DNA from: a bacterium
GTDB lineage: Bacteria > Patescibacteriota > Minisyncoccia > 2-01-FULL-47-10 > JBBIMT01
Length of the DNA stretch: 64,000 nt
NCBI GenBank assembly: GCA_037443185.1
Contig: JBBIOV010000003.1
Span: forward strand, 5,458 to 69,457
Direction: 5' to 3'
Made by a program: the position numbers and the translations under genes. Positions 1 through 44,796 of this stretch are shown here, one piece after another; position 1 is the first letter of the stretch; each line of letters opens with the position of its first letter. Under the pieces are notes generated by a model. It was not told the origin of the DNA and did not search any database. It saw only the letters and a list, made by a program, of their open reading frames with translations.

Positions 1-387
1 TCGCCAACTTGAAAAATACTTTTATTATTTTCAATTTTAATATCAGCAATAGGCACTTGGTTAATTGTAAAAGTTTTTTTAGTGTAGTTTTTTTTAAAAA
101 GGTTGAGTTTCTACTAAAGTCTACTCCATTCCAGGAATAATTTCAATATTATTATCTGAAAATATAAAAGCTAATTTGCATTCGTAAGTTTTCTGTGCTT
201 CTACCTCAAAAGATAAAAATTTTTTATCTACTTTTATCGAACATCTGTCCATTGCACTACATTTCTTGCCGTTTACAGTTAATTGTTTTTCAAAACAAGA
301 AACTCCTTTGGCAAATACGGCAGTCGAAAAATCATTACCATTCAGTCCATTATTAATATTACCAGGTTTCCAATATATTGTTGGTGG

Positions 388-1035
388 CTATTTATTTATA
401 TCAACCGGCGGGCTATCATCTGGACCTCCAACATCTATCCAATCGCTTGGCTCATTTTTTACTTCAACTTCAACTGGTTTTTTTGGTAAAATAAGTACTC
501 CATCAGCCAGTGGTATATTTTCTTGAATAAAATAGATAGAATTTTTTAATTGGAAATCCATTTGTACTTGATACTGATAAGATGCTGTTGGATCAATTGT
601 TGCTGGAGGAGTATCTCCGTATTTTTTGATAAAATCGGCTTTTTGTGGTGATATTTTTACGATTTTAAATTTTACTCCGGTTGGTTTATCAATATATATT
701 TCTTCTTTTCCTGATCTATCAATCTGCTCTTTTGCATTAAAAGAATATCTATATAATTCTTCTTTTCCTGAATTATTTTTATCCAAAAATATCTCAAAAG
801 AAAAATTTTCTTGACCAAATACTAACTTACTAAAGGCTACTATACCAAAAAACATTAAAATAAAAACATTTCTTAAAAACATACCTTTTCTCTTTTTTAA
901 AACAAACGATATAACCGTAATAATTATTAAAATCGTTGATAAAGCCAAAAACCAAAATAATTGTTTTTTCAAAATATCGGCTATAACATGATTATTTTTT
1001 AACAAAAAATCATCTGTCAAAACAAACATTTCCAC
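388..1035 (-). CDS. Hypothetical membrane-anchored protein. It has one N-terminal TM, and its frame continues past an in-frame TAG to ~nt 126.
   Basis: 215-aa ORF with a hydrophobic segment near the N-terminus and no recognisable domain. The same reading frame stays open for ~85 more codons after the TAG at 388-390. Confidence 0.35.
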   Translation of the reverse strand: MEMFVLTDDFLLKNNHVIADILKKQLFWFLALSTILIIITVISFVLKKRKGMFLRNVFILMFFGIVAFSKLVFGQENFSFEIFLDKNNSGKEELYRYSFNAKEQIDRSGKEEIYIDKPTGVKFKIVKISPQKADFIKKYGDTPPATIDPTASYQYQVQMDFQLKNSIYFIQENIPLADGVLILPKKPVEVEVKNEPSDWIDVGGPDDSPPVDINK

Positions 1036-1357
1036 TTATGAAAGAAGCGCTATATTGTCCAGGGCAGTGAAATTATTATTAGAGGAAAAGACGATGTCGA
1101 AAAAATTATCCATATAGATGACAAAACAATTATTAAACTCTTCCGTGATATCATCAAACCGATGCAGCTAAATTTAGGCGACAATGTGGTTGTCATAAGA
1201 GATTCTGATAAAGAAGGTAAAATAAACGCCAAGTTTATCAGCGTTATCCCAGCATTCCCAACTCGAATGGATAATTCATATCATCTTTTCCTTTTAAAAA
1301 ATGTTTTAATAAAATTAAATTCATTTTATGAGGATAGAAAAATTTTTTGAACTAAAT

Positions 1358-3130
1358 TATTAAACATAAAATCATCGTTTTAGTTGCACTTGCTCTTTTA
1401 TGGGGTGAATTTTATTTTATTAAAAATAATGGCGGTGGCACTTCAGAGCTAACTCATTATACTCTGACAACGACAACGGTTAAAAAAGAAACCATTATAC
1501 TTTCAGTTTCCGGGAGTGGAAAGTTTTATCTTTAAGTCAAATTGATTTGAAACCAAAAGTCTCGGGGACGTTATTTTTGTCGGTGTGAAAATGGCGATAA
1601 AGTTAAGAAAGGCGAACTTATTTTGCAAATTGATTCGCGTGAAGCGCAAAAATTAGTTCGAGATGCTCAAACAAACTTAGGAAGCGCAAAATTATCTTTT
1701 GAAAAATTGATTCAGCCGACAGATTCCTTTAACAATATTGCAGGCGGAAAATTCTTTAATAGAAATAAAAAAATTCTAAACTTCGCTATGGGGATAATTT
1801 AAAAAAATCTTATGAAGATAATTTAATAATGTTTTAAATGCTTTCTTAAATTTACCGTCAATTATAAGCGGATTAAATGATATTTTATTAGGAACAAACT
1901 TTAATTTTGTTCAAACGAATATGGATTATTATTCTTCTGAAGTTAAAATTTATGACCAGAAGATTTTGCAATACTAAGACGACGCTTATAAGTTATAACA
2001 AAAAGCTCGGGCTTTTTATGACAAAAATTTCGAAGATTACAAATCACTTTCAAGATTTTCTCCTGTTGAAGCGATTGAAGCATTAATTAGCCAAACTTAT
2101 GATACTGTAAAAGATATCGCTGAAGCAGTAAAAAGCGCTAATAATTTAATCCAATTTCATAAAGATAATTTATTGAAGAAAAATTGAAAACCTCATCCAC
2201 TTGCTGACACGCACCTTGCTCAGTTAACCATCTTTACTGCTAAAACTAATTCCTATCTTTTAAATCTTTTAAATATCAAACGTACTTTAGAAGATTTAAA
2301 AGAAAATATTGAGAGTTCTTCAAGAACTATGGAAGAAGAAAACAGCGATTCTTGAAAAATTAAAAAAGGACCAAATCCTCTTGATATTGAATCGCAAAGA
2401 CTTTTGATAAAACATAAAAAGAATGCCTTGCAAGATGCACAGGAAAAATCAGCTGATTATTCCTCTTTATGCTCCTTTTTCAGGAATTATCACAAAAATT
2501 ACTCTAAAAAAAGGAATTTTGTTTCTGCAAATTCAGTTATTGGCGTTTTACTTTCGCCCCAAAAAATAGCAGAAATTTCTTTAAGTGAAGTTGATATCTC
2601 AAAAGTTAAAATTAGTCAAAAAGCCGCCTTAAGCTTTGGGGTAGTACCAAATTTAAGTATTACAGATCAAGTTTCAAATATAGACACTATCGGATCTATT
2701 TCACAGGGGATCGTTTCTTTAATGTAAAAATAAGTTTTGATACTAATGATGAAAGAATTAAACCTGGAATTACCGTCAATGCGAATATTATTATCGATGT
2801 TAGGTCCGATGCTTTAGTTATTCCAATACAGCCCTAATTTCTCAAGGTAATAATTATTTTTTTAATATACCATCTAAAGATGAGACAGTCTTGCAGGATT
2901 TTATTCAAACTCAGCGTCAAAGCGCCTCAGGAGTGATTTTAAATACATTTTCTATTCGTCAAATTATTATCGCTGGTATTTTTGATGAAATATATTGAAG
3001 TTTTATCAGGCCTCAGCGAAGGTGATATAATAGTTGCAAGCGCCTTTAGAGCCAATAACACTACTTCCTCTAATAGAACTTTACCAACTCCTTCACCATT
3101 TAGAATTGCTGGCTTTGGTGGCTTTTTCAG
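1358..3130 (+). pseudogene. Decayed HlyD-family (MacA-like) periplasmic adaptor / membrane fusion protein
   Basis: The translation gives recognisable HlyD blocks split across several frames with stops. These blocks include an N-terminal TM followed by ...TVKKETIILSVSGSGK..., then LKPKVSGT.. and ..GDKVKKGELILQIDSREAQ, and finally C-terminal ..IKPGITVNANIIIDVRSDALVIPIQ and ..EVLSGLSEGDIIVASAF. No single ORF exceeds ~110 aa. Confidence 0.5.
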
Positions 3131-3289
3131 GTAAGAAATTTTTAATAAAAGTGTTCGTGAAATTTTATAATTTCAACGGAAAAGTTTTGCTTTATATGAT
3201 TGATTGTAAAAATATTTTCAAAATTTATAATAAAAGCGGAAAGATAGAAAATGTCGTTTAAAACGGATATCATTAAATATTTCATTAAA

Positions 3290-4383
3290 TATTGAAAAAG
3301 GGTAATTCGTAGCGATTATGGGACTTTCCGGATCTGGTAAATCAACTTTAATGCATATTCTTGGTTGTCTTGATGCTTCAACAAGTGGCTATTACTTCTT
3401 AGATGGAAAAATGTTACTAAATTATCAGAAGATGAATTAGCTGATATTCGCAATGAAAAAAATCGGATTCGTATTTCAATCTTTTAATCCCTTGCTAAGA
3501 ACAACCCAACGGCGTTTCCAAATTGTTTCTGAAACAGGTAATAATACTAATCAACTGTAATTGGTGTTTTTAATGATTATCTTTATGCACGTAATGTCAA
3601 ACTAAAAGAGGGGTCTTTTATTACCGATAATCATAATAGAAGTTTATCGCGCGTTGCCGTGTTAGGATCTGTGATGGCTGTTGATTTATTTAAAAAGGAA
3701 TAAATCCAATAAAAAACTATTCTTATCAATAAAATTAATTTCAAAGTAATCGTCATTTTATAAAAAAAAGAAAAACGATTTTTTTAATCCGGACGATTTA
3801 GTTTTGGCGCTACTTTTAACAATGCAAAAAGTTTTAACCGGCAATGATTTTCTTTTAAACATTACCTTAAGCATATTAGATAAACAACAAATTGATACTG
3901 TTAAAGAACATAACTTTGCTTTTAACGCAAAAACGCAGAGTTGCTGAACCTGATTTTATGTCGTGTAGCAGTCTGATATCGTTGGCGCTTTAACTCAAGT
4001 GACGATGACTTTTACAATTTTTTAGCTTCTATCGCTGGCATTTCACTTGTCGTTGGCGGAATCGGTATTATGAATATGATGCTTACTGCTGTTACTGAAT
4101 GAACTTGAGAGATAGGTTTGCATAAAGCGATTGAAGCCCAAAAAAAGATATTACGATGCAGTTTTTAGCAGAAGCGATTACGCTGACTTTTGGTAGTGGA
4201 ATTTTGGGTATAATTTTGGGGTGGACAGTTTTTGTTTCCCAAGTAACTGGTATCAATAATTAAATTTCTCTGTTTGCAATTTTTCTTGCAATCGGAGTTT
4301 CAGCGGCTATTGGGATAATTATTTGGTTTTTTCCAGCGAAACGCGCTGTATCGCTCAACCCTATTGATGCTTTAAAATATGAA
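3290..4383 (+). pseudogene. Decayed MacB-like ABC transporter. It retains a Walker-A ATPase fragment, a periplasmic domain and an FtsX permease. The central ATPase motifs are deleted.
   Basis: Walker [19 protein letters not shown] at ~3320-3380. An FtsX C-terminus IMNMMLTAVTE*T*EIG...GILGIILGW...FFPAKRAVSLNPIDALKYE follows, where TGA replaces the Arg codons of the conserved TERTREIG motif. There are frameshifts, and the ABC signature/Walker B region is missing. Confidence 0.55.
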
Positions 4384-4461
4384 TAAGATTTTTCCAAAAT
4401 GAATATTAAATGGAAGATTTAATTTTCATAATTTTTTTGAAATTAAATTTTTCTCAAAAAT

Positions 4462-4882
4462 ATGCAAAAAAATATCATCATTTCAGTATTAATAACTTTA
4501 ATTATTGGTGGTGCTTTTGGTTTTTAAGGCGGAATGAAATATTCCCAAAATAAAAAACAAGTTTCAGAGATTTAATTTTTGAACAAGGATAACAAAGAGG
4601 ACAACAATTTGAAAATTTTGGAAATTGTTCGAAGCAGGATTTTATTACCGGAAAAATAATCCCAAAGGATGATAAAAGTATTACAATAAAACTGCGCGAC
4701 GGTGGTTCAAAAATTGTTTTTTATTCATCTCAAACCGAAATTAGCAAATTTGCGAAAGAAGAAATCGCTGATTTGCAGATTGGCGATAATTTTTTAATTA
4801 GTGGGAAAGCCGGTGCAGATGGAAGTTTCATTGCCCAAACAATTCAGCTTAGACCAATCATTCAAATGCCTTTGCAAAGATA
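4462..4882 (+). pseudogene. Decayed small secreted DUF5666-like protein
   Basis: The N-terminal signal/TM MQKNIIISVLITLIIGGAFGF is interrupted by TAA. The C-terminal part sits in another frame (..KIIPKDDKSITIKLRDGGSKIVFYSSQTEISKFAKEEIADLQIGDNFLISGKAGADGSFIAQTIQLRP) and resembles a DUF5666 beta-barrel repeat. Confidence 0.35.
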
Positions 4883-5005
4883 AAAAATAGAATATTATTG
4901 ACTTTTTAGATTATATACAAGATAAAATTTGATATCTTTTTATTTTAAATATTTTCAATTAAAAGGCACTTGCGTAAATTTTAATTTCGCTTAAGATAAT
5001 CTATT

Positions 5006-6130
5006 ATGAAAGTAGCTTTAGTGCATGATTATTTGACGCAATTTGGCGGAGCGGAACAAGTGTTAAAAGCGCTATGTGAAATATTCCCTGAAGCGCCAAT
5101 TTATACTCTGATATACGATGAACAGAGAACGCACTATGTTTTTAAAAATACAAAAATAATCTCATCTTTTATTCAAAATTTACCTTTTTCGCGACGCCAC
5201 CATCGTTTCTATCCGTGGCTGATGCCAATTGCAATAGAAAGTTTTGATTTGTCAAAATATGATTTAGTTGTATCAGACTCAGCCTCGTTTGCCAAAGGCA
5301 TAATTACGCGGCCTCAAACTTTACATATTTGTTACTGTCACACTCCATTGCGTTATATATGGACTGATTCGCAAAGAGCCAACCTGGATTTTAAAAATTT
5401 CCCTTTTGCCTCTTTAATTATTCCTTATTTTCAGCATTATTTAAGATTATGGGATTTTGCTGCGGCGCAGAGAGTTGATTATTTCATTGCTAATTCCAAA
5501 AATGTCAGTCAAAGAATTAAAAAATACTACCGCCGAGATTCAGAGATAATATATCCACCAGTGCGAGTTTTGGAGATACAAAATAAACTTAAAAAAATAG
5601 AAAAAAAAGAAAAGCCTTTTCAAGATAAATATTTTTTGATTGTATCTAGACTTTTACCTTATAAATCCGTTGATATAGCTATTAAAGCATTTAAGGCTTT
5701 ACCTCAAGAAAATTTAATAGTGGTCGGCGGAGGAGCTCAATTAAATTATCTTAAAAAAATAGCGCCCAAAAATGTTTTTTTTGTCGGCGAAATACCTTTT
5801 GAAAAAATTGCCCCGTATTACGCTTTTGCTAAGGCTTTAATTTTTCCTCAGGAAGAAGATTTTGGTATGGCGGCGGTCGAGGCGTTGGCTTGTGGTCTTC
5901 CAGTTATTGGTTATAATCGTGGCGGTATAAAAGAAATTATAAAAGATAATGAATCTGGAATTTTATACGATGAGCAAAACGAAAAATCACTGTTCCAGGC
6001 AATAAAAAAATTTTTAGATAAAAAAGTGAAATTTAACAAAGAAAAATTAATGAAAGAAGCTCAACAATTTGATGAAGGAATATTTAAAGAAAAAATAAAA
6101 AACTTTATTCAAAACTTGTATAAAAAGTAA
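5006..6130 (+). CDS. Glycosyltransferase family 4 (GT-B, group 1)
   Basis: N-terminal MKVALVHDYLTQFGGAEQV and a C-terminal E-x7-E region (FPQEEDFGMAAVEALACGLPVIG) typical of GT4 enzymes. Confidence 0.75.
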   Translation: MKVALVHDYLTQFGGAEQVLKALCEIFPEAPIYTLIYDEQRTHYVFKNTKIISSFIQNLPFSRRHHRFYPWLMPIAIESFDLSKYDLVVSDSASFAKGIITRPQTLHICYCHTPLRYIWTDSQRANLDFKNFPFASLIIPYFQHYLRLWDFAAAQRVDYFIANSKNVSQRIKKYYRRDSEIIYPPVRVLEIQNKLKKIEKKEKPFQDKYFLIVSRLLPYKSVDIAIKAFKALPQENLIVVGGGAQLNYLKKIAPKNVFFVGEIPFEKIAPYYAFAKALIFPQEEDFGMAAVEALACGLPVIGYNRGGIKEIIKDNESGILYDEQNEKSLFQAIKKFLDKKVKFNKEKLMKEAQQFDEGIFKEKIKNFIQNLYKK

Positions 6131-6155
6131 AGAAAATAATTTTTTTAAACCAGAT

Positions 6156-7016
6156 TTAAAGTTTTCCTGCAGCGCCAAATAAAATTATTTTTTCTTTAAT
6201 CAATTTGTAAACTGTTTCTTTTGGAGTTTCAAATAATTTATAAGGCGTAGTTTCTTGAGGAGACTTTTTTATCTCTTCCTTTAAAGTATTAGTAAAAGCA
6301 AGGCGCACTTCGGTGTTGATGTGAATATTGTTTATGCCGTTTTTTATAGCATTTTTTATATCGCTTTCGCTAATGCCTGAACCGCCATGCAAAACTAAAG
6401 TTTGATTAGGCATAACATTATTTATTTCTTTTAAAAGTTTTATATCTAAAGAAGGATTACCTTTTAAGGTTATTCCATGAAAATTTCCAATCATTATTGC
6501 TAATCTATCGACGGAAGTTTTTTGGATGTAAGCTAAAGCTTCGTTTGGTTTTGTAAAATCTTCTTTTTTTAATTCTATTTTTTCGTGGATTTTCGATTCC
6601 CCAGCAATAAAACCTAACTCTCCTTCAACAGAAATATTTAAATCTTTCTTTTTTGCATAATTTAAAACTTCTTTAGTCATTTTTACATTTTCTTCAAAAG
6701 GATACTCCGAGGCGTCAATATGAATTGAATCATATCCAGCATCAATGGCTTTTTTTGCGTTTTCTACAGACTTTGTATGATCAGCGTTTAAAAATACTGG
6801 AAATCCAGTTTTAATCCTAAAACCTTTCACTAAACTAACAGCTTCCTCAAGCTCCATAAATTTTCTTTCTCCTTCTGAAGTGCCAATCATAACGGGGCTT
6901 TTTAATTCTCGCGCTGCATCTAAAATAGCATCAAAAATAATTGAATCGGCGATATTAAAATGAGGCAATGCCCATTTTTCTTTTTTAGCCCTATTTAACC
7001 AATAAGAGAGAGTCAT
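6156..7016 (-). CDS. fba: Class II fructose-bisphosphate aldolase family protein
   Basis: Motifs LPHFNI, NADHTKS, DSIHIDAS and LHGGSGI. The start is placed at the internal Met (MTLSYW..), since the upstream extension is low-complexity. Confidence 0.75.
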   Translation of the reverse strand: MTLSYWLNRAKKEKWALPHFNIADSIIFDAILDAARELKSPVMIGTSEGERKFMELEEAVSLVKGFRIKTGFPVFLNADHTKSVENAKKAIDAGYDSIHIDASEYPFEENVKMTKEVLNYAKKKDLNISVEGELGFIAGESKIHEKIELKKEDFTKPNEALAYIQKTSVDRLAIMIGNFHGITLKGNPSLDIKLLKEINNVMPNQTLVLHGGSGISESDIKNAIKNGINNIHINTEVRLAFTNTLKEEIKKSPQETTPYKLFETPKETVYKLIKEKIILFGAAGKL

Positions 7017-7142
7017 TGATATTAGTATATAGTATTTAACATATAGTATCAAGACTTTAAAAGTTAAACCTTTATAGCATATAATATCGCAAATCAAACA
7101 GTAAAAGTTGGTAATCTATTTATTTTAGGTTAAAATATTTTT

Positions 7143-8507
7143 ATGGAAATATTTTTAAAAGACATAAAATTGCCTATGTTCAAGAGAGTGCTAAAAGAAA
7201 AATATTGCTTTTTGATTTTTTTGATTTTTTTGACTACTATTTCTTTTAATTTTCCTGGGAAAATTTTTGCTTTAACGCGCGAAGAGCTTGAAGAAGAGTT
7301 AAAAAAAATTGAATTACAAATAAAAGAATACGAAAGAGAACTTGTTAAAACTCAAACTCAAAAACAAACTTTAATTAACACAATTAATCAGTTAAAAAAA
7401 GAACAAGAAAAAATTTCGCTTCAAATACGATCAACGAATTTGCAAATTAAAAAATTAGATAAAGAAATTGCTTCAGTGGAGAAGTTAATAAAAAATTTAT
7501 TGGAAAAAATTAATACTTTAAAGAACGATGTCTCGGGAATTATTCGCGTAATGTATGCTCGTGACAAGATATCTTTGGTGGAACTTTTCTTAACATCTAA
7601 CAGTTTTTCATCTTTTGTTTCAAAATCTGAAGCGTTAAAACAATTGTCCCAAAAACTCAATCTCGTTTTAAAAGAAGTTAAAAGGACAAAAGAAGAACTG
7701 GAACAGAAGCGTCAAGAACTTGAATCTAAACAAAATGACAAAAAAAATCTTTTAGCGATTCAAATTTTGCAGAGTCAAAATCTTCAATTTAAAACCGCTC
7801 AGCAAAATCAAATCTTAAAAGAAACGCAAGGCAAAGAAGCTAAATACCAAGCTTCTATCGCTGATTCAAAAAAACGCGCTCAGGAGATTCGAAGTCGTAT
7901 TTATGAACTTTTGGGAGTTAGCAATCAAATTACCTTCGGGGAAGCTGTGGAAATTGCTAAATGGGCGGAAAGTTTAACAGGGGTGCGCGCCGCTTTGCTC
8001 TTGGCAGTGTTAACTCAAGAGTCAAATTTAGGAAAAAATGTCGGGACTTGCAATCGACCAAGCGATCCACCTTCCAAAAGCTGGAAGGTGGTTATGAAGC
8101 CTGATCGAGATCAAAGTCATTTTTTAGCCATTTTGAATGAATTAAAAATGAATCCTGATGTTACTCCAATATCTTGTCCGATGCGCGATGCAAAAGGCAA
8201 TCAAATAGGGTGGGGAGGGGCAATGGGTCCAGCGCAATTTATTCCTTCAACTTGGGTGTTATATAAAGATAAAATCTCCGCTTTAACAGGTAAGAAACCG
8301 GCTAATCCTTGGAATATTAAAGATGCTTTTTTAGGAGCGGCTCTTTTATTAAAAGATAACGGTGCTATCACTGGTAATCAGGAGGCTGAATGGGCTGCGG
8401 CAATGAGATATTTTTCTGGCTCTACCAATCCTCGTTTTCGGTTTTATGGAGATAATGTGATGGCGATTGCTAAAAAATATGAACAAGATATCAAGGATAT
8501 AAGCTAA
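7143..8507 (+). CDS. Coiled-coil protein with a C-terminal lytic transglycosylase (SLT_2/MltB-like) domain
   Basis: An N-terminal TM is followed by ~250 aa of heptad-rich coiled coil. The C-terminus carries LTQESNLG ... GAMGPAQFIPSTW, the MltB/Slt35-type signature. Confidence 0.55.
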   Translation: MEIFLKDIKLPMFKRVLKEKYCFLIFLIFLTTISFNFPGKIFALTREELEEELKKIELQIKEYERELVKTQTQKQTLINTINQLKKEQEKISLQIRSTNLQIKKLDKEIASVEKLIKNLLEKINTLKNDVSGIIRVMYARDKISLVELFLTSNSFSSFVSKSEALKQLSQKLNLVLKEVKRTKEELEQKRQELESKQNDKKNLLAIQILQSQNLQFKTAQQNQILKETQGKEAKYQASIADSKKRAQEIRSRIYELLGVSNQITFGEAVEIAKWAESLTGVRAALLLAVLTQESNLGKNVGTCNRPSDPPSKSWKVVMKPDRDQSHFLAILNELKMNPDVTPISCPMRDAKGNQIGWGGAMGPAQFIPSTWVLYKDKISALTGKKPANPWNIKDAFLGAALLLKDNGAITGNQEAEWAAAMRYFSGSTNPRFRFYGDNVMAIAKKYEQDIKDIS

Positions 8508-8636
8508 TACAATCAAGTAGTTAAAGTCAAGCTTATATTAAAGAGGCAAACTTGATAATTGATTTTGAAAATCTTGCATTTTTTACAAGTATTGTTATAA
8601 TCTAACCACATTATAATTATTAACTTTATCAATATC

Positions 8637-9158
8637 ATTTTTCGTTATAGAATCAATCAACAAATAATCGTCCCAAAAGTCAGATTAATTGACGAAAATG
8701 GAGTGCAGATTGGCATAGTATCTCTTGAGGAGGCTAAAAAAATGGCTATAGACCGAGGTCTTGATTTGGTTGAAGTACAGCCTAATGCCGATCCTCCAGT
8801 TGTTAAGATTATTGATTTTTCAAAATTTTTGTATCAGTTTAAAAAAGCCAAAAAGAATAAGCCCCAACAAATCAAAACAAAGATTATTAGATTTTCGGTA
8901 AGAATAGCTGAACACGATTTGAATGTCAAAGCAAATCAAGCTTCAAAGTTTTTAAGCAAAGAATATAAAGTTCAAGTATTTTTAACATTAAAGGGGCGCG
9001 AGAAAGAACATAAAGATTTAGCTAAAGAGAAATTGCAAGAATTTTTAAATAAAATAAAGGAGGAATACGCTATTGAAACACCGCTAAAAGAAACTCCGGC
9101 AGGATTAACAATTTTATTAAGGAAAATCAATGCTCAAAACAAAAAAGTCAGCAGCTAA
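8637..9158 (+). CDS. infC: Translation initiation factor IF-3
   Basis: INQQIIVPKVRLIDENGVQIGIVSLEEA..IDRGLDLVEVQPNADPPVVKIIDFSKFLYQ matches the IF3 N- and C-domains. The frame is open upstream of the listed GTG with no ATG, so a non-AUG (ATT at ~8637) start is likely, as in other infC genes. The exact start is uncertain. Confidence 0.75.
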   Translation: MFRYRINQQIIVPKVRLIDENGVQIGIVSLEEAKKMAIDRGLDLVEVQPNADPPVVKIIDFSKFLYQFKKAKKNKPQQIKTKIIRFSVRIAEHDLNVKANQASKFLSKEYKVQVFLTLKGREKEHKDLAKEKLQEFLNKIKEEYAIETPLKETPAGLTILLRKINAQNKKVSS

Positions 9159-9321
9159 AAGATTTAAAATTACTAGCACTGGAAAAGTGCTTTTTCGGCC
9201 TGCTGGTATAAATCATTTTAGGGCAAAAAAATCTTCTAACGAATTAAGAGCAAAAAAAGTCTGGAAAAAATTAGAAGGTAAATTAGCAAAACAAATTAAA
9301 AGACTCTTACCATATCATTGA
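9130..9321 (+). CDS. rpmI: 50S ribosomal protein L35
   Basis: MLKTKKSAAKRFKITSTGKV..R..AG..H is a typical L35. It overlaps the infC 3' end, the usual operon arrangement. Confidence 0.85.
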   Translation: MLKTKKSAAKRFKITSTGKVLFRPAGINHFRAKKSSNELRAKKVWKKLEGKLAKQIKRLLPYH

Positions 9322-9415
9322 ATGTATAAAATCGATAGCAAGGCGCAGGTTTAATGACTTGATAATTTAAATTTATTAATAGTTGTAATTTTCCATAACA
9401 AACTAAAAATAATTT

Positions 9416-9769
9416 ATGCGTATCAAACGCGGAAAAGCAAGATTAAAAAGAAGGAAGCATATTTTAGAAGATGCTAAGGGTTTTAAATGGGGTAGAAAAT
9501 CAAAACTTCGTGCCGCTAAAGAAGCTCTTTTGCATGCACGCTATTTTGCTTATAGGGATCGTAAAAAGAAAAAATCAGAATTTAGAAAATTATGGAATAT
9601 TCAAATTAATGCTGCAGTTAGAGAATACGGAATATCTTATAGTAAGTTTATTTTTGGCTTGAAAAAATCAGGTTTAGCTATTGACCGAAAAATGCTTTCA
9701 GATTTAGCTCAGAATGCGCCATCGACCTTTAAAGCCGTTGTTTTAAAAGTAAAATCAGCCCTAAAGTAA
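9416..9769 (+). CDS. rplT: 50S ribosomal protein L20
   Basis: MRIKRGKARLKRRKHILEDAKGF...YAYRDRKKKK..FRKLWNIQINAAVREYGISYSKFI is a near-canonical L20. Confidence 0.9.
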   Translation: MRIKRGKARLKRRKHILEDAKGFKWGRKSKLRAAKEALLHARYFAYRDRKKKKSEFRKLWNIQINAAVREYGISYSKFIFGLKKSGLAIDRKMLSDLAQNAPSTFKAVVLKVKSALK

Positions 9770-10115
9770 AAACTCCTGTACTATCAACTAGGAAATCAAA
9801 AATATCACTATTTCTGCCAATGACGAAATGTTGATGAAATTCATCAGAAGCGCTATAAGCTAAAGCTACAAGCACCGCTTTTAAAAGCGGATTTTTTATT
9901 TTTTTATGTTGTTTTAAAGCGTTGAAAAGCAAAAAAGTAAAAATAAAAAATTCCGCAAAATGAGCGCTTTTACTTAACAATTCGCCTACGATTCCAGTGG
10001 GTAGAAAAAAAGAAGGTTGGGCAGAAAGAAAAAATATAACTGCCGCCCAAAATAATACTAAAAACCAATGGGAAATGACTCGAATTTTAAATGAATATTG
10101 ATGATAAGAAATCAT
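9729..10115 (-). CDS. VanZ-like family membrane protein
   Basis: Four TM segments with a DEFHQHFVIGRNSDIFD motif characteristic of the VanZ family. Confidence 0.5.
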   Translation of the reverse strand: MISYHQYSFKIRVISHWFLVLFWAAVIFFLSAQPSFFLPTGIVGELLSKSAHFAEFFIFTFLLFNALKQHKKIKNPLLKAVLVALAYSASDEFHQHFVIGRNSDIFDFLVDSTGVFTLGLILLLKQRL

Positions 10116-10560
10116 TTGCTTTTTTAAGTATTTTTTTTAAATTTTTATATTTAAGTTTCTTTAACGCTTTTTCATATGATGCCCAAATAAATTTTTTATG
10201 TTCATATGAAAGTCGCACTTTTTTAGAATAACTTTGGGCTAAAAAGAAATAAACTATTTTATATATTTTTTGTTTCCTTTTTTTCTGGTTTTGCTGAAAA
10301 TAATAAGAAATCTTTTCCTTGAATCCCTGATTTATTTTTTTTATTTTTAAACCGGTTTCTTCCCAAACTTCTCTTAAAGCCGCTTGTTCTAAAGTTTCAT
10401 TTTTTTTAAGATGGCCCTTTGGAAAATTCCAGATTTCATTTTCTCCTTGTAAAAGCAAAAACTTGAGACCTTTGTTGTCTTTTGAAAAAACCACGATGCC
10501 AGCACTGACCTCTTTTTTAGTAATACCAGTAATAAACTTTTTTGGAGATGTTTTAACCAA
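10087..10560 (-). CDS. NUDIX hydrolase
   Basis: Nudix box in FPKGHLKKNETLEQAALREVWEETGL (GX5EX7REVXEEXGU). Confidence 0.65.
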   Translation of the reverse strand: MVKTSPKKFITGITKKEVSAGIVVFSKDNKGLKFLLLQGENEIWNFPKGHLKKNETLEQAALREVWEETGLKIKKINQGFKEKISYYFQQNQKKRKQKIYKIVYFFLAQSYSKKVRLSYEHKKFIWASYEKALKKLKYKNLKKILKKANDFLSSIFI

Positions 10561-10669
10561 AATGCAATTTTATAAAAATTTTATCAATCTGTTTTTTTAA
10601 AAAACTATTGATTGAGTCAACATTATATTTTTTTAAAAATATCAGTGATTTAAATTTTAAAATTTTTAA

Positions 10670-11941
10670 TTAAAGTAAAACCTCTTGTTTATTTTTTTGA
10701 GATAACTCCTCAGGCTTAAAAATATGGATTTTGCCGTATGTTCCATCGTATCCTGGTTCAATATGTAATTTATTTTCCCTTACTCTTTTTATCCCCTCGG
10801 CGATATTTTGAGATATTTTAGCAATAACTGAAAGATCAGCTTCATTTAGGATATAAATTTCAGGACCAATATTTTTTATTAAGGAAAAATATATTCTCCA
10901 GACTTTTTCTGATTTAGACTTTATTCCTAGCGCTTCCATAATAATTTCATCCAGCGGAATTAAATTTTTGTAGGGTATAAATTTATCAGAAATATAACCT
11001 TTTGGCCTGTCTGCTAAAAGTTCTATTCGGTGTAAAACTCCGATTGTTAAGGGTTTTTTGCAATGTGGGCAGATGCCTTTTAGTTTTTTTGTCTGCTTAG
11101 GCATTAATGATACTTTACAAACAGAGTGTCCATCAATATGATATTTTCCTTCTTCCGGGAAAAACTCTAAAGTATAAAGAAAATTTTGCTTATTTTTTGT
11201 TTTAATCGCATTAATAATTGCTTTATAATTTAGTTCAGTATTAAAAACATTTGCTTCGCGGCCTATTTTTTGTAAGCTATGACTATCAGAATTACTCACA
11301 AGAGCGTATTTATCAAGTTTTGAGATACGCCAGTTCATAGATGGATCTGAAGACAGCCCTGTTTCAATGGCGAAAATTTTATTAGTCCATTTATCAAAAC
11401 ATTCCTCCACAGAATCAAAACCAGATTTTGAACCAAAAATCGAAAACCAAGGAGTCCAAGCATGCGCTGGAATAATTACGGCTTCTTCTGTATTTTCAAA
11501 AACAATTTTTGCTAAATCTTCGGATGTAATTCCAATAATTGGTCGCCCGTCCGACATTAAATTTCCTACCCACGCTAGTCTCGCGTTTATTTCCTCTACT
11601 GATTTAAAATCAGGCGCCCATATAATATGGTGTACTTTTCTAACTTTGCCAAACTTAAAATAGATTAAACTTACTTCAGCTGTCAGCATAAATCTTGTGG
11701 GTTCTTGAGTAATGCCATTTTCAGTTTTGCGGTATTCTTTTTTTAATTTAAAAAGACCATGGTCTGCTGGTTCTAATTTTTCTTTTAATTCTTTAAGCCA
11801 ATACGGATGAGTGAAATCTCCTGTACCTAAAACCTGGATACCTTTTATACGAGCCCAAAAATCCAGATTCTCAAGAGTCATTTCTTTTGAGGTAGCTCGC
11901 GAGTACTTTGAATGAATTTGCAGGTCAGCAACGAATTTCAT
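10670..11941 (-). CDS. PHP-domain nuclease, endonuclease Q (EndoQ)-like
   Basis: The N-terminus KFVADLQIHSKYSRATSKEMTLENL...IQVLGTGDFTHPYWL resembles the EndoQ PHP N-terminus. A C-terminal C-x..C...CPHC zinc finger is present. Length is ~420 aa. The start is set at the internal Met (MKFVADLQIHS). Confidence 0.5.
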   Translation of the reverse strand: MKFVADLQIHSKYSRATSKEMTLENLDFWARIKGIQVLGTGDFTHPYWLKELKEKLEPADHGLFKLKKEYRKTENGITQEPTRFMLTAEVSLIYFKFGKVRKVHHIIWAPDFKSVEEINARLAWVGNLMSDGRPIIGITSEDLAKIVFENTEEAVIIPAHAWTPWFSIFGSKSGFDSVEECFDKWTNKIFAIETGLSSDPSMNWRISKLDKYALVSNSDSHSLQKIGREANVFNTELNYKAIINAIKTKNKQNFLYTLEFFPEEGKYHIDGHSVCKVSLMPKQTKKLKGICPHCKKPLTIGVLHRIELLADRPKGYISDKFIPYKNLIPLDEIIMEALGIKSKSEKVWRIYFSLIKNIGPEIYILNEADLSVIAKISQNIAEGIKRVRENKLHIEPGYDGTYGKIHIFKPEELSQKNKQEVLL

Positions 11942-11984
11942 AATATTATTGTACCAAACAATTGTCAAAATAAAAGTAAAACGC

Positions 11985-12062
11985 GCCAGGAATGCTGTAA
12001 TGCTTTAAGTTTAAGCATTTTTCCAGGCGCGTATTTGCCGTCCTCACCATGACGGCACCCCC
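11985..12062 (-). terminator. GC-rich double-hairpin rho-independent terminator downstream of the 12085-12597 gene
   Basis: On the minus strand: tgccgtcatggtgaggacggca (7-bp stem), then cgcgcctggaa...ttcctggcgcg (11-bp stem, one mismatch), then a TTTTACTTTTATTTT run. Confidence 0.5.
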
Positions 12063-12084
12063 TTTCTTTTTGTATTTTTCATAT

Positions 12085-12597
12085 TCATCTATCTATAGCG
12101 CTGATGATCTTAGCACCTCCTTTTTGAAGATCATACAGAATCACCCGATGACTTATCGGCTGGAAAAATTTTTTTCCAGCCTTCACCGGTGGCCGTTTTA
12201 TTAAGACATTTATCTTAATATACGACCTCTCAAACAGCCGACCACGATTGATTGGTTTGTTAATCTCGGTTTTAATCTTCACTTCTGCAGGAATAAAAAT
12301 CACCCCCGAATCATCTTCCATTTTCACTGCCACCTCTTCAGATTCTCCGCGAAGATTAAGACGGTTATTATGCCAAGCACCGTCTTTTTCCAAGGAGAAT
12401 TTTCCTATGGTTTCATAGATTATTTGCTTAAGTTCATTAAGCAAAGGATCCTCTGGCCAATTAGGAAGAATTTCAGTCTCAAGTATTAACTTTTTTAGTC
12501 TTTCTAATTCGGTCTGATGACCATTTTGTCTGTCGCCAACTTGCGTTTGTTGATCTTGAGCAAGCGCCATTACTATAGGCAATTTAGTCATTTTCAA
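12085..12597 (-). CDS. Hypothetical protein with no confident family. It is compositionally GC-rich (~42-50%) relative to its neighbours.
   Basis: 170-aa ORF. An initial impression of an Hsp20/ACD fold could not be supported by motifs. Local GC is far above the ~29% background. Confidence 0.4.
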   Translation of the reverse strand: MKMTKLPIVMALAQDQQTQVGDRQNGHQTELERLKKLILETEILPNWPEDPLLNELKQIIYETIGKFSLEKDGAWHNNRLNLRGESEEVAVKMEDDSGVIFIPAEVKIKTEINKPINRGRLFERSYIKINVLIKRPPVKAGKKFFQPISHRVILYDLQKGGAKIISAIDR

Positions 12598-12784
12598 AGA
12601 ACATCCCTCCTTTGATTCATTAATTTTATCTTAATCTCAAGTGATTTTTTGTCAAGTTTGTATATTTGTTAAATACATATCAGGGGTAATGTTTTTAAAA
12701 AATTATTAAAGTTTACCACTATTTCACTTAAGATGTTATTTGAAAAAGCAATTTAGAACCTTCGTGAATTTTTAAGACAATTGC

Positions 12785-13648
12785 CTATAAATGAATATCA
12801 ATTAAATACTCCTTCAATGCTTCATAATAAAATCTTAAAGGGGGAAGTTTTGTATTAATCAAAATAGAGTATTGGGGACGTTTTGCTTTACTAATATAAT
12901 CTTTTAAGCTAATGGGGATAAGTTTTGGAACTTTAAATTTTTTATCAAAATTTTTTTTAATCTGAAATATTTCAAAAGCATAATCAAAAAAATTTATGAC
13001 TCCTCCATTAGTTCGATGAAAGATTCCTCCGGTGAAATTTTGGTTTTGTAAAAGCTGGCGCGAAGCATAAGCTAAATCGAGAGCATAAGTTACCGAGACA
13101 AATTGATCTGAAACCAATTTTATTTCAGAGAGTTTATCTGCTAAATTTAGCATCGTAGTGACAAAATTTTTTCCACCTATACCAAAAACATAACTTGTCC
13201 TGATTAAGTAAAAATTAGGGATAGAAAAATTTTCAGATATTTCACGAAGATAATTCTCTCCGGCTAATTTGGATTTACCATAGACATTAAGTGGATTTTG
13301 AGGAATCTCTTCTTCTTTATATCCTTCCTTTTTTGACCCATCAAAAACAAAATCTGTGCTATAGTGAAAAAATTTTGCTTGAATTTCAAGAGAAACTTTT
13401 GCTAAATTTTTAACTGCTTCAGCATTAACTTTAAAACAAAGTTCTTTTTCTGTCTCGGCTTTTTCGACATCGGTGTAAGCGGCAGCATTAAAAATCACAT
13501 CAGGTTTCAGTTGTGAAATTTTTTTTTGCGTTTTGCGAAAGTCAGTAATATCAAGATTTTGAATATCCCAACAAATTGGCTTTAAATCAATGAATGCTTT
13601 TTTTAATGCTAAGCCAACTAAACCCTTGCCCAAAATAAGTATTTTCAT
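12785..13648 (-). CDS. rfbD: dTDP-4-dehydrorhamnose reductase (RmlD-like)
   Basis: MKILILGKGLVG...VIFNAAAYTDVEKAE.E...FKVNAEAVKNLA is the RmlD substrate-binding pattern. Confidence 0.7.
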   Translation of the reverse strand: MKILILGKGLVGLALKKAFIDLKPICWDIQNLDITDFRKTQKKISQLKPDVIFNAAAYTDVEKAETEKELCFKVNAEAVKNLAKVSLEIQAKFFHYSTDFVFDGSKKEGYKEEEIPQNPLNVYGKSKLAGENYLREISENFSIPNFYLIRTSYVFGIGGKNFVTTMLNLADKLSEIKLVSDQFVSVTYALDLAYASRQLLQNQNFTGGIFHRTNGGVINFFDYAFEIFQIKKNFDKKFKVPKLIPISLKDYISKAKRPQYSILINTKLPPLRFYYEALKEYLIDIHL

Positions 13649-13730
13649 TGTTTGAAAAAATTATATAAAATTTAACCACAACGCATTTTCGAAGGTTTTA
13701 TAATGATTGAAGTTTAAAGGTGGGTAGTAT

Positions 13731-15719
13731 TTATTTAAAAAATGTTTTTATTTTGTCTCTTAAAAGGGCGGCTTTTTCGAAATCCAATTCTTGCGCGGCT
13801 TTTTTCATCTGCTTGCGTAGTTCTTGTAAGATGATTTGTTTTTCTTTTTCCGATGCATATTTTATTTTTTCATCAATATTTCTAAGGGATTTTTCTAAAG
13901 ATTTTTTAGTTAATTTTGAGCCAACTATTTCCAGAGGGCGAATTTCTTTAATGATACTTTTGGGAGTGATATTATTTTTTAAATTATATTCTTTTTGGAT
14001 CTGGCGTCTGAAGTTGGTTTGTTCTATGGCGCGACGCATGCTAGCGGTAATTGTATCAGCATATAAAATTACTTTTCCTTCAATATGTCTGGCAGCTCTT
14101 CCTATAGTTTGAATTAATGTCGTCTCTGATCTTAAAAAGCCTTCCTTATCGGCGTCTAAAATTAATATTAAAGAAACTTCAGGCAAATCTAAACCTTCAC
14201 GTAATAGGTTAATTCCAACAATAACATCATAAGCGCCTTTTCTTAAATTATATAATATTTCTGGCCTATTTAAAGTATGAATTTCAGAATGTAAATATTC
14301 AGCATTTATTTTGTGTTCTTTTAAATATTCAGCTAGATTTTCTGCTGAGCGCTTTGTTAAAGTAGTAATTAACACTCTTTGTTTTTTGGCGATTGCTTGT
14401 TTTATTTCCTTGAGAATATCTTTTATCTGATTTTTTGTTGGACGTAATTCAATTTCAGGATCAAGAAGACCGGTTGGACGAATAAACATTTTGGCGATAA
14501 AAGGAGAAGATCTTTTTATTTCAAATTCAGCTGGAGTGGCGGAAACATAAATTACTTGATCTAATTTTTTATCAAATTCAGTAAATTTTAATGGTCTATT
14601 ATCAATTGCCGAAGGAAGCCTAAATCCATAATCTATTAAAACTTGTTTTCTGGAACGATCTCCTTCATACATACCTTTAATTTGTGGAATTGTCATATGT
14701 GACTCGTCTATAAATGTTAAATAACCTCCGGTTTTTTTAGTCGTAAAAATAAAAAAATCAATTAAAGTGCTTGGGGGATCTCCAGGAGCACGAAATTCTA
14801 AATGACGTGAATAATTCTCAATTCCTGAACAAAAGCCATTGAGTTTTAACATCTCTAAATCATAATTTGTTCTTTCTTGAATACGTTGAGCTTCAATAAA
14901 TTTATTTCTTTTTTTGAAATATTTGATACGTTCTTGCAATTCTGTTTTAATATTTTGTAGCGCTAAATCTAATTTATCTTGAGCTGTAACAAAATGCTTA
15001 GCCGGAAAAATTGTCACTTCGTTAACCTCTTGTGGTCTCTTAAATTGAAATTTAATAAAAATTTTTTCTATAAAATTTCCAAATAATTCAATCACGATGC
15101 TTTCATATCCACTTGGAGTAAAAATTTCAATCGTATCGCCTCTAGCTCTGAAAGTACCTGGTAATAGTTCAAAGTCGTTTCTTTCGTATTGCAATTTGCT
15201 TAAAATTTTAGTGAGTGAGGTTCTTTTTAAATCCATTCCTTTTTTTATAATGAAAGAAATTTTCTTATATTCTTCAGGAGAACCAATATTATAAATACAA
15301 GAAACAGAAGCAACAATTAAAACATCGCGCCTTGTTAAAAGTGCTTGAGTAGCTCCATGACGTAAACGATCAATTTCATCGTTTATTTTGGCATCTTTTT
15401 CAATGTAAGTATCAGTAGTAGGTATATATGCTTCAGGTTGATAATAATCATAATAAGATACAAAGTAATGAACGGCATTATGCGGGAAAAAGTTTTTAAA
15501 CTCAAAATAAAGCTGGGAGGCAAGAGTCTTGTTATGAGAAATAACTAAAGTAGGTTTTTGAACTGCTTCGATAACTTTTGCCATAACAAAAGTTTTACCA
15601 GAACCGGTCACGCCATGTAATGTTTGGTATTTTATTTCATCTTTTAAGTTGCGGCTTAAAAAATCAATAGCACTTTGCTGGTCACCTTTTGGAGTAAATG
15701 GTGAGATAAGCTTAAACAT
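13731..15719 (-). CDS. uvrB: Excinuclease ABC subunit B
   Basis: TPKGDQQSAIDFL...TLHGVTGSGKTFVMAKVIE...PTLVISHNKTLASQLYFEFKNFFPHNAVHYFVSYYDYYQPEAY and a C-terminal UVR motif. The start is set at MFKLISPF. Confidence 0.9.
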   Translation of the reverse strand: MFKLISPFTPKGDQQSAIDFLSRNLKDEIKYQTLHGVTGSGKTFVMAKVIEAVQKPTLVISHNKTLASQLYFEFKNFFPHNAVHYFVSYYDYYQPEAYIPTTDTYIEKDAKINDEIDRLRHGATQALLTRRDVLIVASVSCIYNIGSPEEYKKISFIIKKGMDLKRTSLTKILSKLQYERNDFELLPGTFRARGDTIEIFTPSGYESIVIELFGNFIEKIFIKFQFKRPQEVNEVTIFPAKHFVTAQDKLDLALQNIKTELQERIKYFKKRNKFIEAQRIQERTNYDLEMLKLNGFCSGIENYSRHLEFRAPGDPPSTLIDFFIFTTKKTGGYLTFIDESHMTIPQIKGMYEGDRSRKQVLIDYGFRLPSAIDNRPLKFTEFDKKLDQVIYVSATPAEFEIKRSSPFIAKMFIRPTGLLDPEIELRPTKNQIKDILKEIKQAIAKKQRVLITTLTKRSAENLAEYLKEHKINAEYLHSEIHTLNRPEILYNLRKGAYDVIVGINLLREGLDLPEVSLILILDADKEGFLRSETTLIQTIGRAARHIEGKVILYADTITASMRRAIEQTNFRRQIQKEYNLKNNITPKSIIKEIRPLEIVGSKLTKKSLEKSLRNIDEKIKYASEKEKQIILQELRKQMKKAAQELDFEKAALLRDKIKTFFK

Positions 15720-15874
15720 AAAATAAATGTTAAAATTGTTAAAAATAATTACCAAAATTAAGATAAGTCTTGGTTGAAGAAATTATTATTTTGATGTTGA
15801 CGATTGTAATTAATATTTTACATTAAAACCTAATTTACTTGCTATGTAGTTAATATTGAGATATATTAAATAGT

Positions 15875-16450
15875 ATGTTGGAAACAATTAAAGGAAAATT
15901 AGAGGCTAAATACGAAGATTATCTCATTTTGAATAATGGTGGTTGGGGGCTAAAAATTTATATGTGCCGCCGTGATCTTTTAAAGATGCCAAAAGTTAGA
16001 AGTATTGTCAAGCTATTTACGCATTTTTCGCTTCGTTTTAAAAGCCAAGAAATCGAATTGCTTATTTTTGGTTTTTTAAAGAAAGAGGACAGAGATTTTT
16101 TTAGGGAGCTTTTGAAAAAAAATCAGATTGGGGTTAAAATAGCATTTTCTATTTTAAATTTTGCTAGTCATTCTCAAATTAAAAATGCTTTTAAAAAAGG
16201 AGATATTAATTTCTTCAAAGATTGTAAAGGCATTCCCAAGAAAGTCATAAAAAATTTATTTTTGGAACACTCTTTAGTGGAAGAATTTAAAAAAAATAAA
16301 ATAAGTGAAGAAGATAAAAAAATTATTGCGGCGCTTAAAAAATTAGGGTATGGCGCAGCCGAAGCTAAAGAAGCAATTTTAAAAATTCCTATTCAAGTTA
16401 AATCTCTTCAAAATAAATTAAAAGAAGCGCTAAAAATTTTAAATCAATAA
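15875..16450 (+). CDS. ruvA: Holliday junction branch migration protein RuvA
   Basis: An N-terminal OB-fold region (MLETIKGKLE...YLILNNGGWGLKIYM), an HhH region (..KGIPKKVIKNL) and a C-terminal ..ALKKLGYGAAEAKEAI domain III. Confidence 0.75.
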   Translation: MLETIKGKLEAKYEDYLILNNGGWGLKIYMCRRDLLKMPKVRSIVKLFTHFSLRFKSQEIELLIFGFLKKEDRDFFRELLKKNQIGVKIAFSILNFASHSQIKNAFKKGDINFFKDCKGIPKKVIKNLFLEHSLVEEFKKNKISEEDKKIIAALKKLGYGAAEAKEAILKIPIQVKSLQNKLKEALKILNQ

Positions 16451-39475: not shown

Positions 39476-39533
39476 AAACTTAGATGAAGCATTAATTTTT
39501 AAGCACTTTTTAACTTCAAAGACTCCATAAAAT

Positions 39534-39604
39534 CGGGACATAGTATAATGGTAGTACGCATCCTTCGGGAGGATGTAGTCCCAGTTCGAATCTGGGTGTC
39601 CCGA
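39534..39604 (+). tRNA. tRNA-Pro (anticodon CGG)
   Basis: Cloverleaf with a perfect 7-bp acceptor stem cgggaca/tgtcccg, an anticodon stem catcc/ggatg with loop ttCGGga, a T arm cccag-TTCGAAT-ctggg and discriminator A. C1:G72 is a bacterial tRNA-Pro identity feature. CCA is not encoded. Confidence 0.8.
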
Positions 39605-39614
39605 AAATAAAAAG

Positions 39615-42187: not shown

Positions 42188-42203
42188 AAAAAATAAAAAC
42201 AAT

Positions 42204-44648: not shown

Positions 44649-44796
44649 TGACTCCCTCCTTTTATTCGCTTACTTAAGCCAAAAATTTAAAGTACCAACC
44701 TCTTTATTTTTCTTTAATATAACATAAAATTATTTTTAAGTCAATAATCTTAAATTTGGCAAATGCCTTGAAATTGGTTTTTGCAAAATTAAGCTG

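Follow-up and report, generated by a model that had tools for sequence, protein, structure and literature searches.

Two described exporters come closest to the locus analysed here. MacAB(-TolC) of Escherichia coli, a type VII ABC exporter, has the same component set, and YknWXYZ of Bacillus subtilis, which belongs to a monoderm-type envelope, has the same three-gene order of adaptor (YknX), ATPase (YknY) and permease (YknZ). In related operons that are intact in other Patescibacteria, the adaptor matches the TIGR01730 RND_mfp model (139.6 bits against a cutoff of 94.9), and the ATPase and permease align best to the MacB model NF007826 (246 and 263 bits), although these scores stay far under the MacB equivalog cutoff of 966 bits. 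ABC_tran, MacB_PCD (159.6 bits) and FtsX (78.3 bits) are all recognised in these relatives, whose permease shares the MacB_PCD and FtsX architecture of MacB. Their adaptors also carry precomputed Pfam assignments to Beta-barrel_YknX (PF25990) and YknX_C (PF25989).

The Patescibacteria operons nevertheless depart from both systems. Most of them encode the ATPase and the permease as separate genes (235 and 404 aa), and their adaptor, at about 590-630 aa, is longer than MacA. A partner resembling TolC is not evident; Patescibacteria are thought to be without an outer membrane. Compared with YknWXYZ, the operons have no YknW homologue. Small TM proteins (s162 and the DUF5666-like s132/s149) lie at their flanks instead, joined in two of the three operons by an ECF-type sigma factor. 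The copy described here differs further in being dead. In this it resembles the pseudogenes of reducing genomes (Mycobacterium leprae, Rickettsia and recent insect symbionts) and of Parcubacteria MAGs, in which multi-frame homology, frameshifts, nonsense codons and internal deletions are likewise found and slow physical removal is a common trait. Unlike the decay in reducing genomes, the present block is isolated: intact ORFs are densely packed in the other 59 kb, and nothing points to genome-wide decay in the window, by which we mean the whole 64-kb stretch of DNA that was analysed.

All coordinates below are positions in the window, and the block lies on its plus strand. Positions 1042-4883 are colinear with the intact Patescibacteria operons, which run in the order small membrane protein, membrane-fusion adaptor, ABC ATPase, MacB_PCD/FtsX permease and small DUF5666-like protein. 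Five genes are recognisable in this order, and all five are disabled. Judged by sequence comparison, this 3.8-kb block, in a Patescibacteria genome that is small and AT-rich, is an ordinary pseudogene block and a genuine relic of a multi-gene adaptor/ABC/permease/DUF5666-like operon; very probably it is the non-functional remainder of a resident envelope exporter of the MacAB/YknXYZ type. The sequence-only reading had described a decayed efflux operon reaching to 4900; the decayed operon is borne out, and its right end is at 4883. The features are as follows.

388-1035, minus strand: divergent orphan ORF of 215 aa, whose start adjoins the truncated s162 remnant
1057-1267, plus strand: remnant of the small membrane protein s162, residues ~83-151 left; in relatives this gene precedes the adaptor gene
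1328-3131, plus strand: membrane-fusion (HlyD/YknX-type) adaptor pseudogene, nearly full length, residues ~1-597
3196-3506, plus strand: 5' third of the ABC ATPase, residues 1-~100, with ATG 3196 kept
3506/3507, plus strand: deletion junction, ATPase and permease remnants joined in the same frame (...FNPLLRTT|QRRFQIV...)
3507-4386, plus strand: MacB_PCD/FtsX permease pseudogene, residues ~107-404, native stop at 4384-4386
4462-4883, plus strand: pseudogene of a small TM and DUF5666-like protein, ATG 4462 and native stop 4881-4883 retained
4884-4926, no strand: right boundary, with sister-MAG colinearity beginning at ~4926

Intact operons were reached through permease matches, and the proteins of those on three Patescibacteria contigs (L033, L034 and L036) were used as queries for tblastn and for a home-made frameshift-aware protein-to-DNA alignment. 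The tblastn matches are colinear, spread over all three plus-strand frames and have E-values from 1e-14 to 1e-94. The frameshift-aware comparison, which had been suggested as a check on the first reading, aligned the adaptor, the ATPase and the permease, and likewise s162 and the small protein behind the permease. Pfam recognised ABC_tran (27.2 bits) and FtsX (55.2 bits, E 9e-15) on the raw fragments; MacB_PCD reached 23.7 bits, just below the cutoff, and the adaptor pieces were not recognised by Pfam on these fragments. The uninterrupted frames of a working operon are not found, the longest ORF on either strand of 1036-5005 being 107 aa; ORFs of 90 aa or more, by contrast, take up 86.5% of 5006-64000.

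The adaptor is the most complete of the remnants. Its residues 3-597 are matched by tblastn at 1338-3131 in frames 3, 1 and 3 (E 1e-85 to 1e-94), and the frameshift-aware alignment gives 50% identity to the L034 membrane-fusion protein over 556 codons. The coding frame carries 11-12 frameshifts and four in-frame stops (TAA 1975, TAA 1996, TGA 2185 and TGA 2353), and between ATG 1328 and the homologous frame there is one more lesion, at 1340-1356, which is either a frame break or a TAA. The full-length adaptor of a MacB-type exporter is present here as homology only, its frame being broken about 16 times.

In the ATPase, by comparison, only residues 1-102 of 236 align (73.7% identity to the L034 protein over 99 codons; tblastn at 3196-3515, E 2e-22 to 2e-24), and the Pfam ABC_tran match covers profile positions 14-52. 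The Walker A motif (GLSGSGKST) is present at 3321-3347, as is the Q-loop region. Residues 103-235, with the signature, Walker B and the H-loop, are absent from the alignment, as first noticed for the signature and Walker B, and the ATPase is incomplete. What is left is interrupted by three frameshifts and by TAA 3303, which replaces the Glu of EKGEF. One deletion inside the block, about 0.62-0.72 kb long (716 nt against L033, 724 nt against L034 and ~624 nt against the fused L036 gene) took ATPase residues ~103-235 together with permease residues 1-~106, where TM1 lies and the periplasmic domain begins. It is because of this deletion that the locus looks like a MacB-like ATPase-permease fusion; of the earlier description as a MacB-like ABC protein, the homology of both domains holds and the fusion does not.

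The permease remnant matches residues 107-404 at 3507-4383 (E 5e-58) with 64-66% identity over 287 codons in the frameshift-aware alignment. It is interrupted by about eight frameshifts and four in-frame stops (TAG 3966, TGA 4100, TGA 4106 and TAA 4261), and the set of TM1, full periplasmic core and FtsX TM2-4 bundle is not found entire, residues 1-~106 being gone. Downstream, the last gene of the block matches residues 42-149 of L034_s149 at 4560-4856 (E 2e-24); its lesions are TAA 4525, TAA 4573, a frameshift near 4591 and the loss of about 19 low-complexity linker codons. The DUF5666 profile (PF18914) scores 16.0 bits on the window fragment and 22.5-23.5 bits on intact homologues, below the 27-bit gathering threshold. 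The relationship to the small protein that follows the relatives' permease is solid, while membership in DUF5666, which the sequence-only reading had assigned, does not reach the family threshold; the label "DUF5666-like" may serve as a lead.

At the 5' end, the s162 remnant is matched by residues 83-162 of L033_s162 at 1057-1281 (E 1e-14) and by residues 91-154 of L036_s161 at 1060-1251. Its frame is open from 1042 to 1350, and the N-terminal ~82 codons (TM segment and GENYHRNF motif) and the start codon are absent. What had been read as a frame-broken small ORF is actually a 5'-truncated remnant whose homologous part has no frame break. The sigma factor and the s125 protein, which lie upstream in L033 and L036, gave no tblastn match. 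In relatives, the place of the 215-aa orphan is taken by the sigma-factor gene, the s125 gene and the 5' half of s162. A phmmer search of 1.84 billion representatives returned only the orphan itself, whose in-frame TAG at 388-390 is followed by a frame that stays open to 121. A promoter and terminator scan gave only weak consensus matches, with no clear operon promoter or terminator, and a search around the block found neither repeats at its flanks nor IS ends nor mobility genes.

Sister loci were sought through the downstream glycosyltransferase, and one close relative was found (contig L001, 92% aa identity); relatives of the enzyme in the protein database reach only 74-78% and have unrelated neighbourhoods. 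Positions 1139-8903 of L001 correspond to window 4926-12684 at 94.4% nucleotide identity (blastn). L001 breaks synteny exactly at the right end of the block and ends 1.1 kb further on; left of the point equivalent to ~4926 lies a minus-strand gene, unrelated to the block, for a 253-aa protein with a signal peptide that has no match anywhere in the window. A comparison with sister genomes, proposed at the outset, thus shows the block missing from the site in the sister MAG, and the searches of other genomes yielded no orthologue of the block, whether intact or decayed. No second copy of the operon lies within the 64-kb window, but an intact one may lie elsewhere in the genome. Across the shared 7.7 kb, dN is 0.024 and dS 0.173, a dN/dS of ~0.14 that indicates purifying selection and agrees with the first impression of intact surroundings.

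The block holds 23-24 frameshifts (23 on the best path and one lesion at the adaptor 5' end) and 11 in-frame stops (six TAA, four TGA and one TAG). These ~35 disabling point lesions, or ~9.6 per kb, are evenly spread over the genes, with 16 in 1.80 kb of the adaptor, 4 in 0.31 kb of the ATPase, 12 in 0.88 kb of the permease and 3 in 0.42 kb of the DUF5666-like gene (chi-square ~4.6, 4 df, homogeneous). Frameshifts of both signs occur, -1 being commoner than +1, and the estimated ratio is ~24 small indels per ~230 substitutions. The stops confirm that substitution decay stands beside the indels, as had been claimed from the permease motif TERTREIG, in which both Arg positions do read TGA (4100-4102 and 4106-4108). 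That these are CGA>TGA transitions does not follow, since the ancestral codon cannot be shown as CGA: AGA is the commonest Arg codon in the genome (153 AGA against 62 CGA), and relatives have CGT, CGG or CGC at the first position and AGG or CGG at the second, so AGA>TGA transversions are equally possible.

From the stop count we estimate ~0.07 substitutions per site since release from selection, a figure that rests on n=11 stops and a simple mutation model (Poisson 95% range ~0.03-0.12). As the lesion density is uniform across genes, the entire operon was probably freed from selection at one time. The trigger was probably a rearrangement that removed the operon 5' end (promoter region, sigma-factor gene, s125 and the N-terminal half of s162), or else the ~0.7-kb deletion of the ATPase catalytic motifs and permease TM1. 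Neutral drift would have followed, bringing the ~0.07 substitutions per site and ~24 small indels over a timescale comparable to the split from the 94%-identical sister lineage, while large deletions would have taken only ~20% of the block length.

This course leaves little room for the view, put forward by the sequence-only reading, that the loss was very recent and that the operon had just been inactivated, with too little time for deletion. The codon-position composition is indeed still wholly gene-like, every gene can still be recognised, sharing 50-74% identity with distant homologues, and ~80% of the original length is kept. Against this, the ~35 disabling lesions are independent, a ~0.7-kb deletion and a 5' truncation have also occurred, and the ~0.07 since inactivation is similar to the per-lineage synonymous divergence from the sister (~0.087), from which it follows that the loss was not very recent. 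The conceptual adaptor and permease are, moreover, 10-15 points less identical to their homologues than intact orthologues are to each other, a deficit that ~0.07 neutral substitutions per site would predict. We therefore regard a very recent loss as unlikely.

That the block was dead on arrival, as a fragment gained recently by horizontal transfer (e.g. natural transformation) and never functional in the lineage, seems very unlikely to us. Such an event would be in keeping with the break in conservation at both ends (the orphan ORF on the left, the sister-MAG synteny break at ~4926 on the right), with a sister that has no block at the same site and with the absence of the operon's 5' genes. 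The base composition tells against it. GC at the three codon positions of the reconstructed frame (0.408/0.328/0.229) matches that of 29 intact genes of the window (0.407/0.308/0.230), which argues that the operon was resident rather than newly acquired, and is far from the nearest homologous operons found, whose GC content is 44-51%. The best homologues are Parcubacteria-type, likewise for the flanking glycosyltransferase. No donor-like close copy turned up: the best match among 5.8 billion proteins is 60% identical, and in JGI metagenomes, with the stitched adaptor as query, nothing closer than 40% was found. The direct or inverted repeats and mobility genes that might accompany a transfer were, as noted, not found at the flanks.

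A sequencing or assembly artefact, in which the cell would have intact genes and consensus errors (e.g. at homopolymers) or a mis-join would have produced the indels and stops, is highly improbable. Fourteen of the 23 frameshifts do have a homopolymer of 4 nt or more no further than 9 nt away, and six lie at runs of 6-8 A or T; this association, however, equals the background (61% against 55%). The 11 stops are substitutions, the block also has the ~0.7-kb deletion and the 5' truncation, and long intact ORFs occupy the remaining 59 kb of this AT-rich contig. A Logan contig (SRR11582170) reproduces window 1-16130 with 5 mismatches and 0 gaps, although it may derive from the same reads, which would make it a separate assembly of shared data. 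Since the second assembly agrees and the remaining window shows intact genes under purifying selection, we take the block not to be an artefact; two marks of pseudogenes, multi-frame similarity to intact relatives' genes and lesions repeated in a second assembly, are both present.

Recoding, by which TGA as a sense codon or programmed frameshifting would keep the genes functional, can be dismissed almost outright: few genes here do end in TGA (1 of 29 long ORFs), and some CPR lineages have reassigned it, but in-frame stops of all three types occur together with frameshifts in both directions, over 23 of them, the DNA for the ATPase catalytic motifs and for permease TM1 is gone, and 29 of 29 sampled long ORFs are open under code 11, so that in-frame TGA occurs only inside the decayed block, beside TAA and TAG, which is not the pattern of codes 4/25.

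A decayed exporter operon of resident origin opens no new question and shows no new mechanism. The sequence-only reading considered such a block unusual for a reduced genome. Pseudofinder surveys put pseudogenes at ~5-10% in Parcubacteria MAGs (PMC11188291), and the median coding density of CPR bacteria is 89% (PMC9166423); at such pseudogene fractions the block is not very unusual. It does add a data point, as the dead operon lasted through ~0.07 neutral substitutions per site with about a fifth of its length lost. Its persistence suggests that decayed DNA is removed more slowly than the "streamlined genome" picture implies, in agreement with the published Parcubacteria fractions.

A more far-reaching interpretation is a lineage-specific loss of an exporter module widespread in Parcubacteria, through a rearrangement that cut off the regulatory 5' end and without a replacement copy. 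We consider this rather unlikely. If it were true, the relic would testify to a real shift in the physiology of the envelope or in the interaction with a host or partner, and would offer rare neutral DNA for the mutation spectrum and deletion rate of an uncultivated CPR bacterium.

The practical consequence is mostly one of annotation: the proper label for the 3.8 kb is four to five pseudogenes from a single exporter operon, rather than intergenic sequence or small hypothetical ORFs. A 99-aa fragment ORF of the block has already been called as a gene in a public assembly, and an exact look-up of it led to the same Logan contig only.

The window has a GC content of 30%, and 86.5% of positions 5006-64000 lie within ORFs of 90 aa or more. 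Between 1036 and 5005 the longest ORF on either strand is at most 107 aa, and in translation the recognisable protein stretches of the block at 1042-4883 (+) interleave among the three forward frames. Based on tblastn searches of window positions 1-5200 with the proteins of intact reference operons, the matches are colinear and switch frames, which upholds the adaptor, ABC ATPase, FtsX permease and small-protein operon remains described in the sequence-only reading. The frameshift-aware comparison it had proposed was run as a purpose-written protein-to-DNA alignment, in which the genes of the block align; lesions were counted along the best path.

Remnants (tblastn coordinates, reference residues) and their lesions
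1057-1281 (+), small protein s162, residues 83-162
1338-3131 (+), membrane-fusion adaptor, residues 3-597; 11 frameshifts and one further break (1340-1356); TAA 1975, TAA 1996, TGA 2185, TGA 2353
3196-3515 (+), ABC ATPase, residues 1-102; 3 frameshifts; TAA 3303
3507-4383 (+), permease, residues 107-404; ~8 frameshifts; TAG 3966, TGA 4100, TGA 4106, TAA 4261
4560-4856 (+), downstream small protein, residues 42-149, start ATG 4462 by frameshift-aware alignment; 1 frameshift; TAA 4525, TAA 4573

One deletion took ATPase residues 103-235 together with permease residues 1 to ~106; its junction lies at 3506/3507 (...FNPLLRTT/QRRFQIV...), and its size is 716-724 nt by the coordinates of two intact operons, L033 and L034. 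Walker A is kept (3321-3347) and the signature/Walker B region is missing, as had been noted, and the earlier description of the block was accurate but for two points. The "MacB-like fusion" is the product of this deletion joining two genes. The first gene, previously taken to be frame-broken, is instead a 5′-truncated remnant without its N-terminal ~82 codons, and the relatives' upstream sigma-factor and s125 genes had no tblastn match in window 1-5200. Both arginine positions of TERTREIG do carry TGA (4100 and 4106); the proposed CGA>TGA route is unestablished, since AGA is the most frequent arginine codon in this genome, and in relatives the codon is CGN at the first site and AGG/CGG at the second. 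A 99-aa piece of the dead adaptor (2428-2727, +; positions 2862-3161 of Logan contig L032) is annotated as protein-coding in the Logan assembly, and relic ORFs of the block are therefore already "hypothetical proteins" in public collections.

Pfam searches of the raw fragments gave FtsX at 55.2 bits, ABC_tran at 27.2 bits and MacB_PCD at 23.7 bits, with a weak DUF5666 match (16 bits); the adaptor pieces went unrecognised. A stitched ATPase/permease query retrieved thousands of ~405-aa Patescibacteria permeases, the best at 60% identity, and the intact operon is present on three of their contigs: L033 (an NCBI MAG), L034 (an ENA metagenome contig) and L036 (Candidatus Azambacteria). Its order is adaptor (587-632 aa), ATPase (235 aa), permease (404-420 aa) and small protein (132-149 aa), with ATPase and permease fused in L036. 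The intact adaptor scores 139.6 bits against TIGR01730 RND_mfp (cutoff 94.9), and YknX-type beta-barrel domains are among the precomputed hits on these contigs; the ATPase is ABC_tran, and the permease is MacB_PCD plus FtsX, its top NCBIfam alignment being MacB, far under the equivalog cutoff. DUF5666 is below threshold in the intact downstream protein; of the DUF5666 claim, the homology of that protein stands and the domain itself is weak. In two of the three operons (L033 2016-3489; L036 927-2220) the adaptor is preceded by genes for an ECF-type sigma factor and for s125 and s162, both small membrane proteins of no assigned family. This suggests that sigma factor, s125/s162 and exporter genes form a conserved envelope-stress-regulated module. 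The block originated as a MacAB/YknXYZ-type exporter and survives as its relic, but functionally it qualifies as a member of that family on no count.

An artefactual origin of the lesions is countered on several sides. A Logan assembly of SRR11582170, which may share the window assembly's data, has the same locus (window 1-16130) with 5 mismatches and 0 gaps, one mismatch falling inside the block, at 3671. Eleven lesions are substitutions producing in-frame stops, which bears out decay by substitution besides indels, and frameshifts show no excess association with homopolymers (61% vs 55% for random positions). The other 59 kb of the window are intact, and nine flanking genes give dN 0.024 and dS 0.173 against the sister MAG contig L001.

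Given the codons present in the block, a random substitution produces a stop 4.9% of the time, and 11 stops in 1104 codons correspond to ~0.07 substitutions per site, or ~230 substitutions (Poisson range 0.03-0.12). Identity to homologues in the frameshift-aware alignment (adaptor 50%, permease 64-66%) is 10-15 points below that among intact orthologues (60-66% and 77-84%), which agrees with this estimate. The sister dS amounts to ~0.087 per lineage, so the age of the inactivation is comparable to that of the 94%-ANI divergence rather than "very recent". Lesion density is even across genes (chi-square ~4.6, 4 df), which fits selection having lapsed on all genes of the operon at once.

In the reconstructed frame, GC1/2/3 is 0.408/0.328/0.229, against 0.407/0.308/0.230 for 29 intact window genes; the block therefore represents a long-term resident gene set. 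The non-coding gaps have 25% GC, a state to which the block has yet to relax, and the nearest homologous operons have 44-51%. No repeats or mobility genes were found in its flanks. We infer that a single event disabled the resident exporter operon: it lost either its regulatory 5′ end or, through the 0.7-kb deletion, the ATPase catalytic core. Neutral decay would have followed, and the block has shrunk only slowly, by ~20% of its length. The block is real and ordinary, a standard bacterial pseudogene block. It had been thought unusual for a reduced genome, a premise that is weak given the ~5-10% pseudogenes surveyed in Parcubacteria MAGs (PMC11188291) and the median CPR coding density of 89% (PMC9166423).

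L001 (JBBIMT010000029, bin AR170220_bin_239, a bin name matching that of a sample from a Costa Rica spring in PMC10437873) is 94.4% identical to the window over 7.77 kb and colinear only from ~4926 rightwards, 43 nt beyond the last pseudogene's stop codon. The suggested search for an intact orthologue there found, in place of the block, an unrelated minus-strand gene for a 253-aa signal-peptide protein (L001 1-1138), which has no counterpart in the window. On the left, a divergent 215-aa ORF (388-1035, -) adjoins the s162 remnant; a search of 1.84 billion representative proteins found no homologue for it, which makes it an orphan. The breaks on both sides thus place the block in a variable region, flanked by two rearrangement points. 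Upstream synteny is absent in more distant relatives, whose glycosyltransferases are 74-78% identical. The orphan's frame has an in-frame TAG at 388-390 and stays open for 88 more codons, down to 121, and 121-1035 (-) could represent either another broken gene or a candidate for read-through.

Elsewhere in the window, stop codons are very unevenly used: 29 long ORFs end in TAA (25), TAG (3) and TGA (1). The most AT-rich stretch (19.6% GC) is a 505-bp gap without a long ORF at 49057-49561, between divergent genes. Cumulative GC skew peaks at ~41400-42200, near an XseB-like short ORF (~41906-42202, -), and genes lie mostly on the plus strand at 19.5-41.4 kb and mostly on the minus strand at 42.2-64 kb, a convergent arrangement; the region looks like a replication terminus. 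ARAGORN called tRNA-Pro(CGG) at 39533-39605, the single tRNA gene in the 64 kb, and no tmRNA; Rfam places a full-length tmRNA at 44794-45164 (-) with 101 bits over model positions 1-374.
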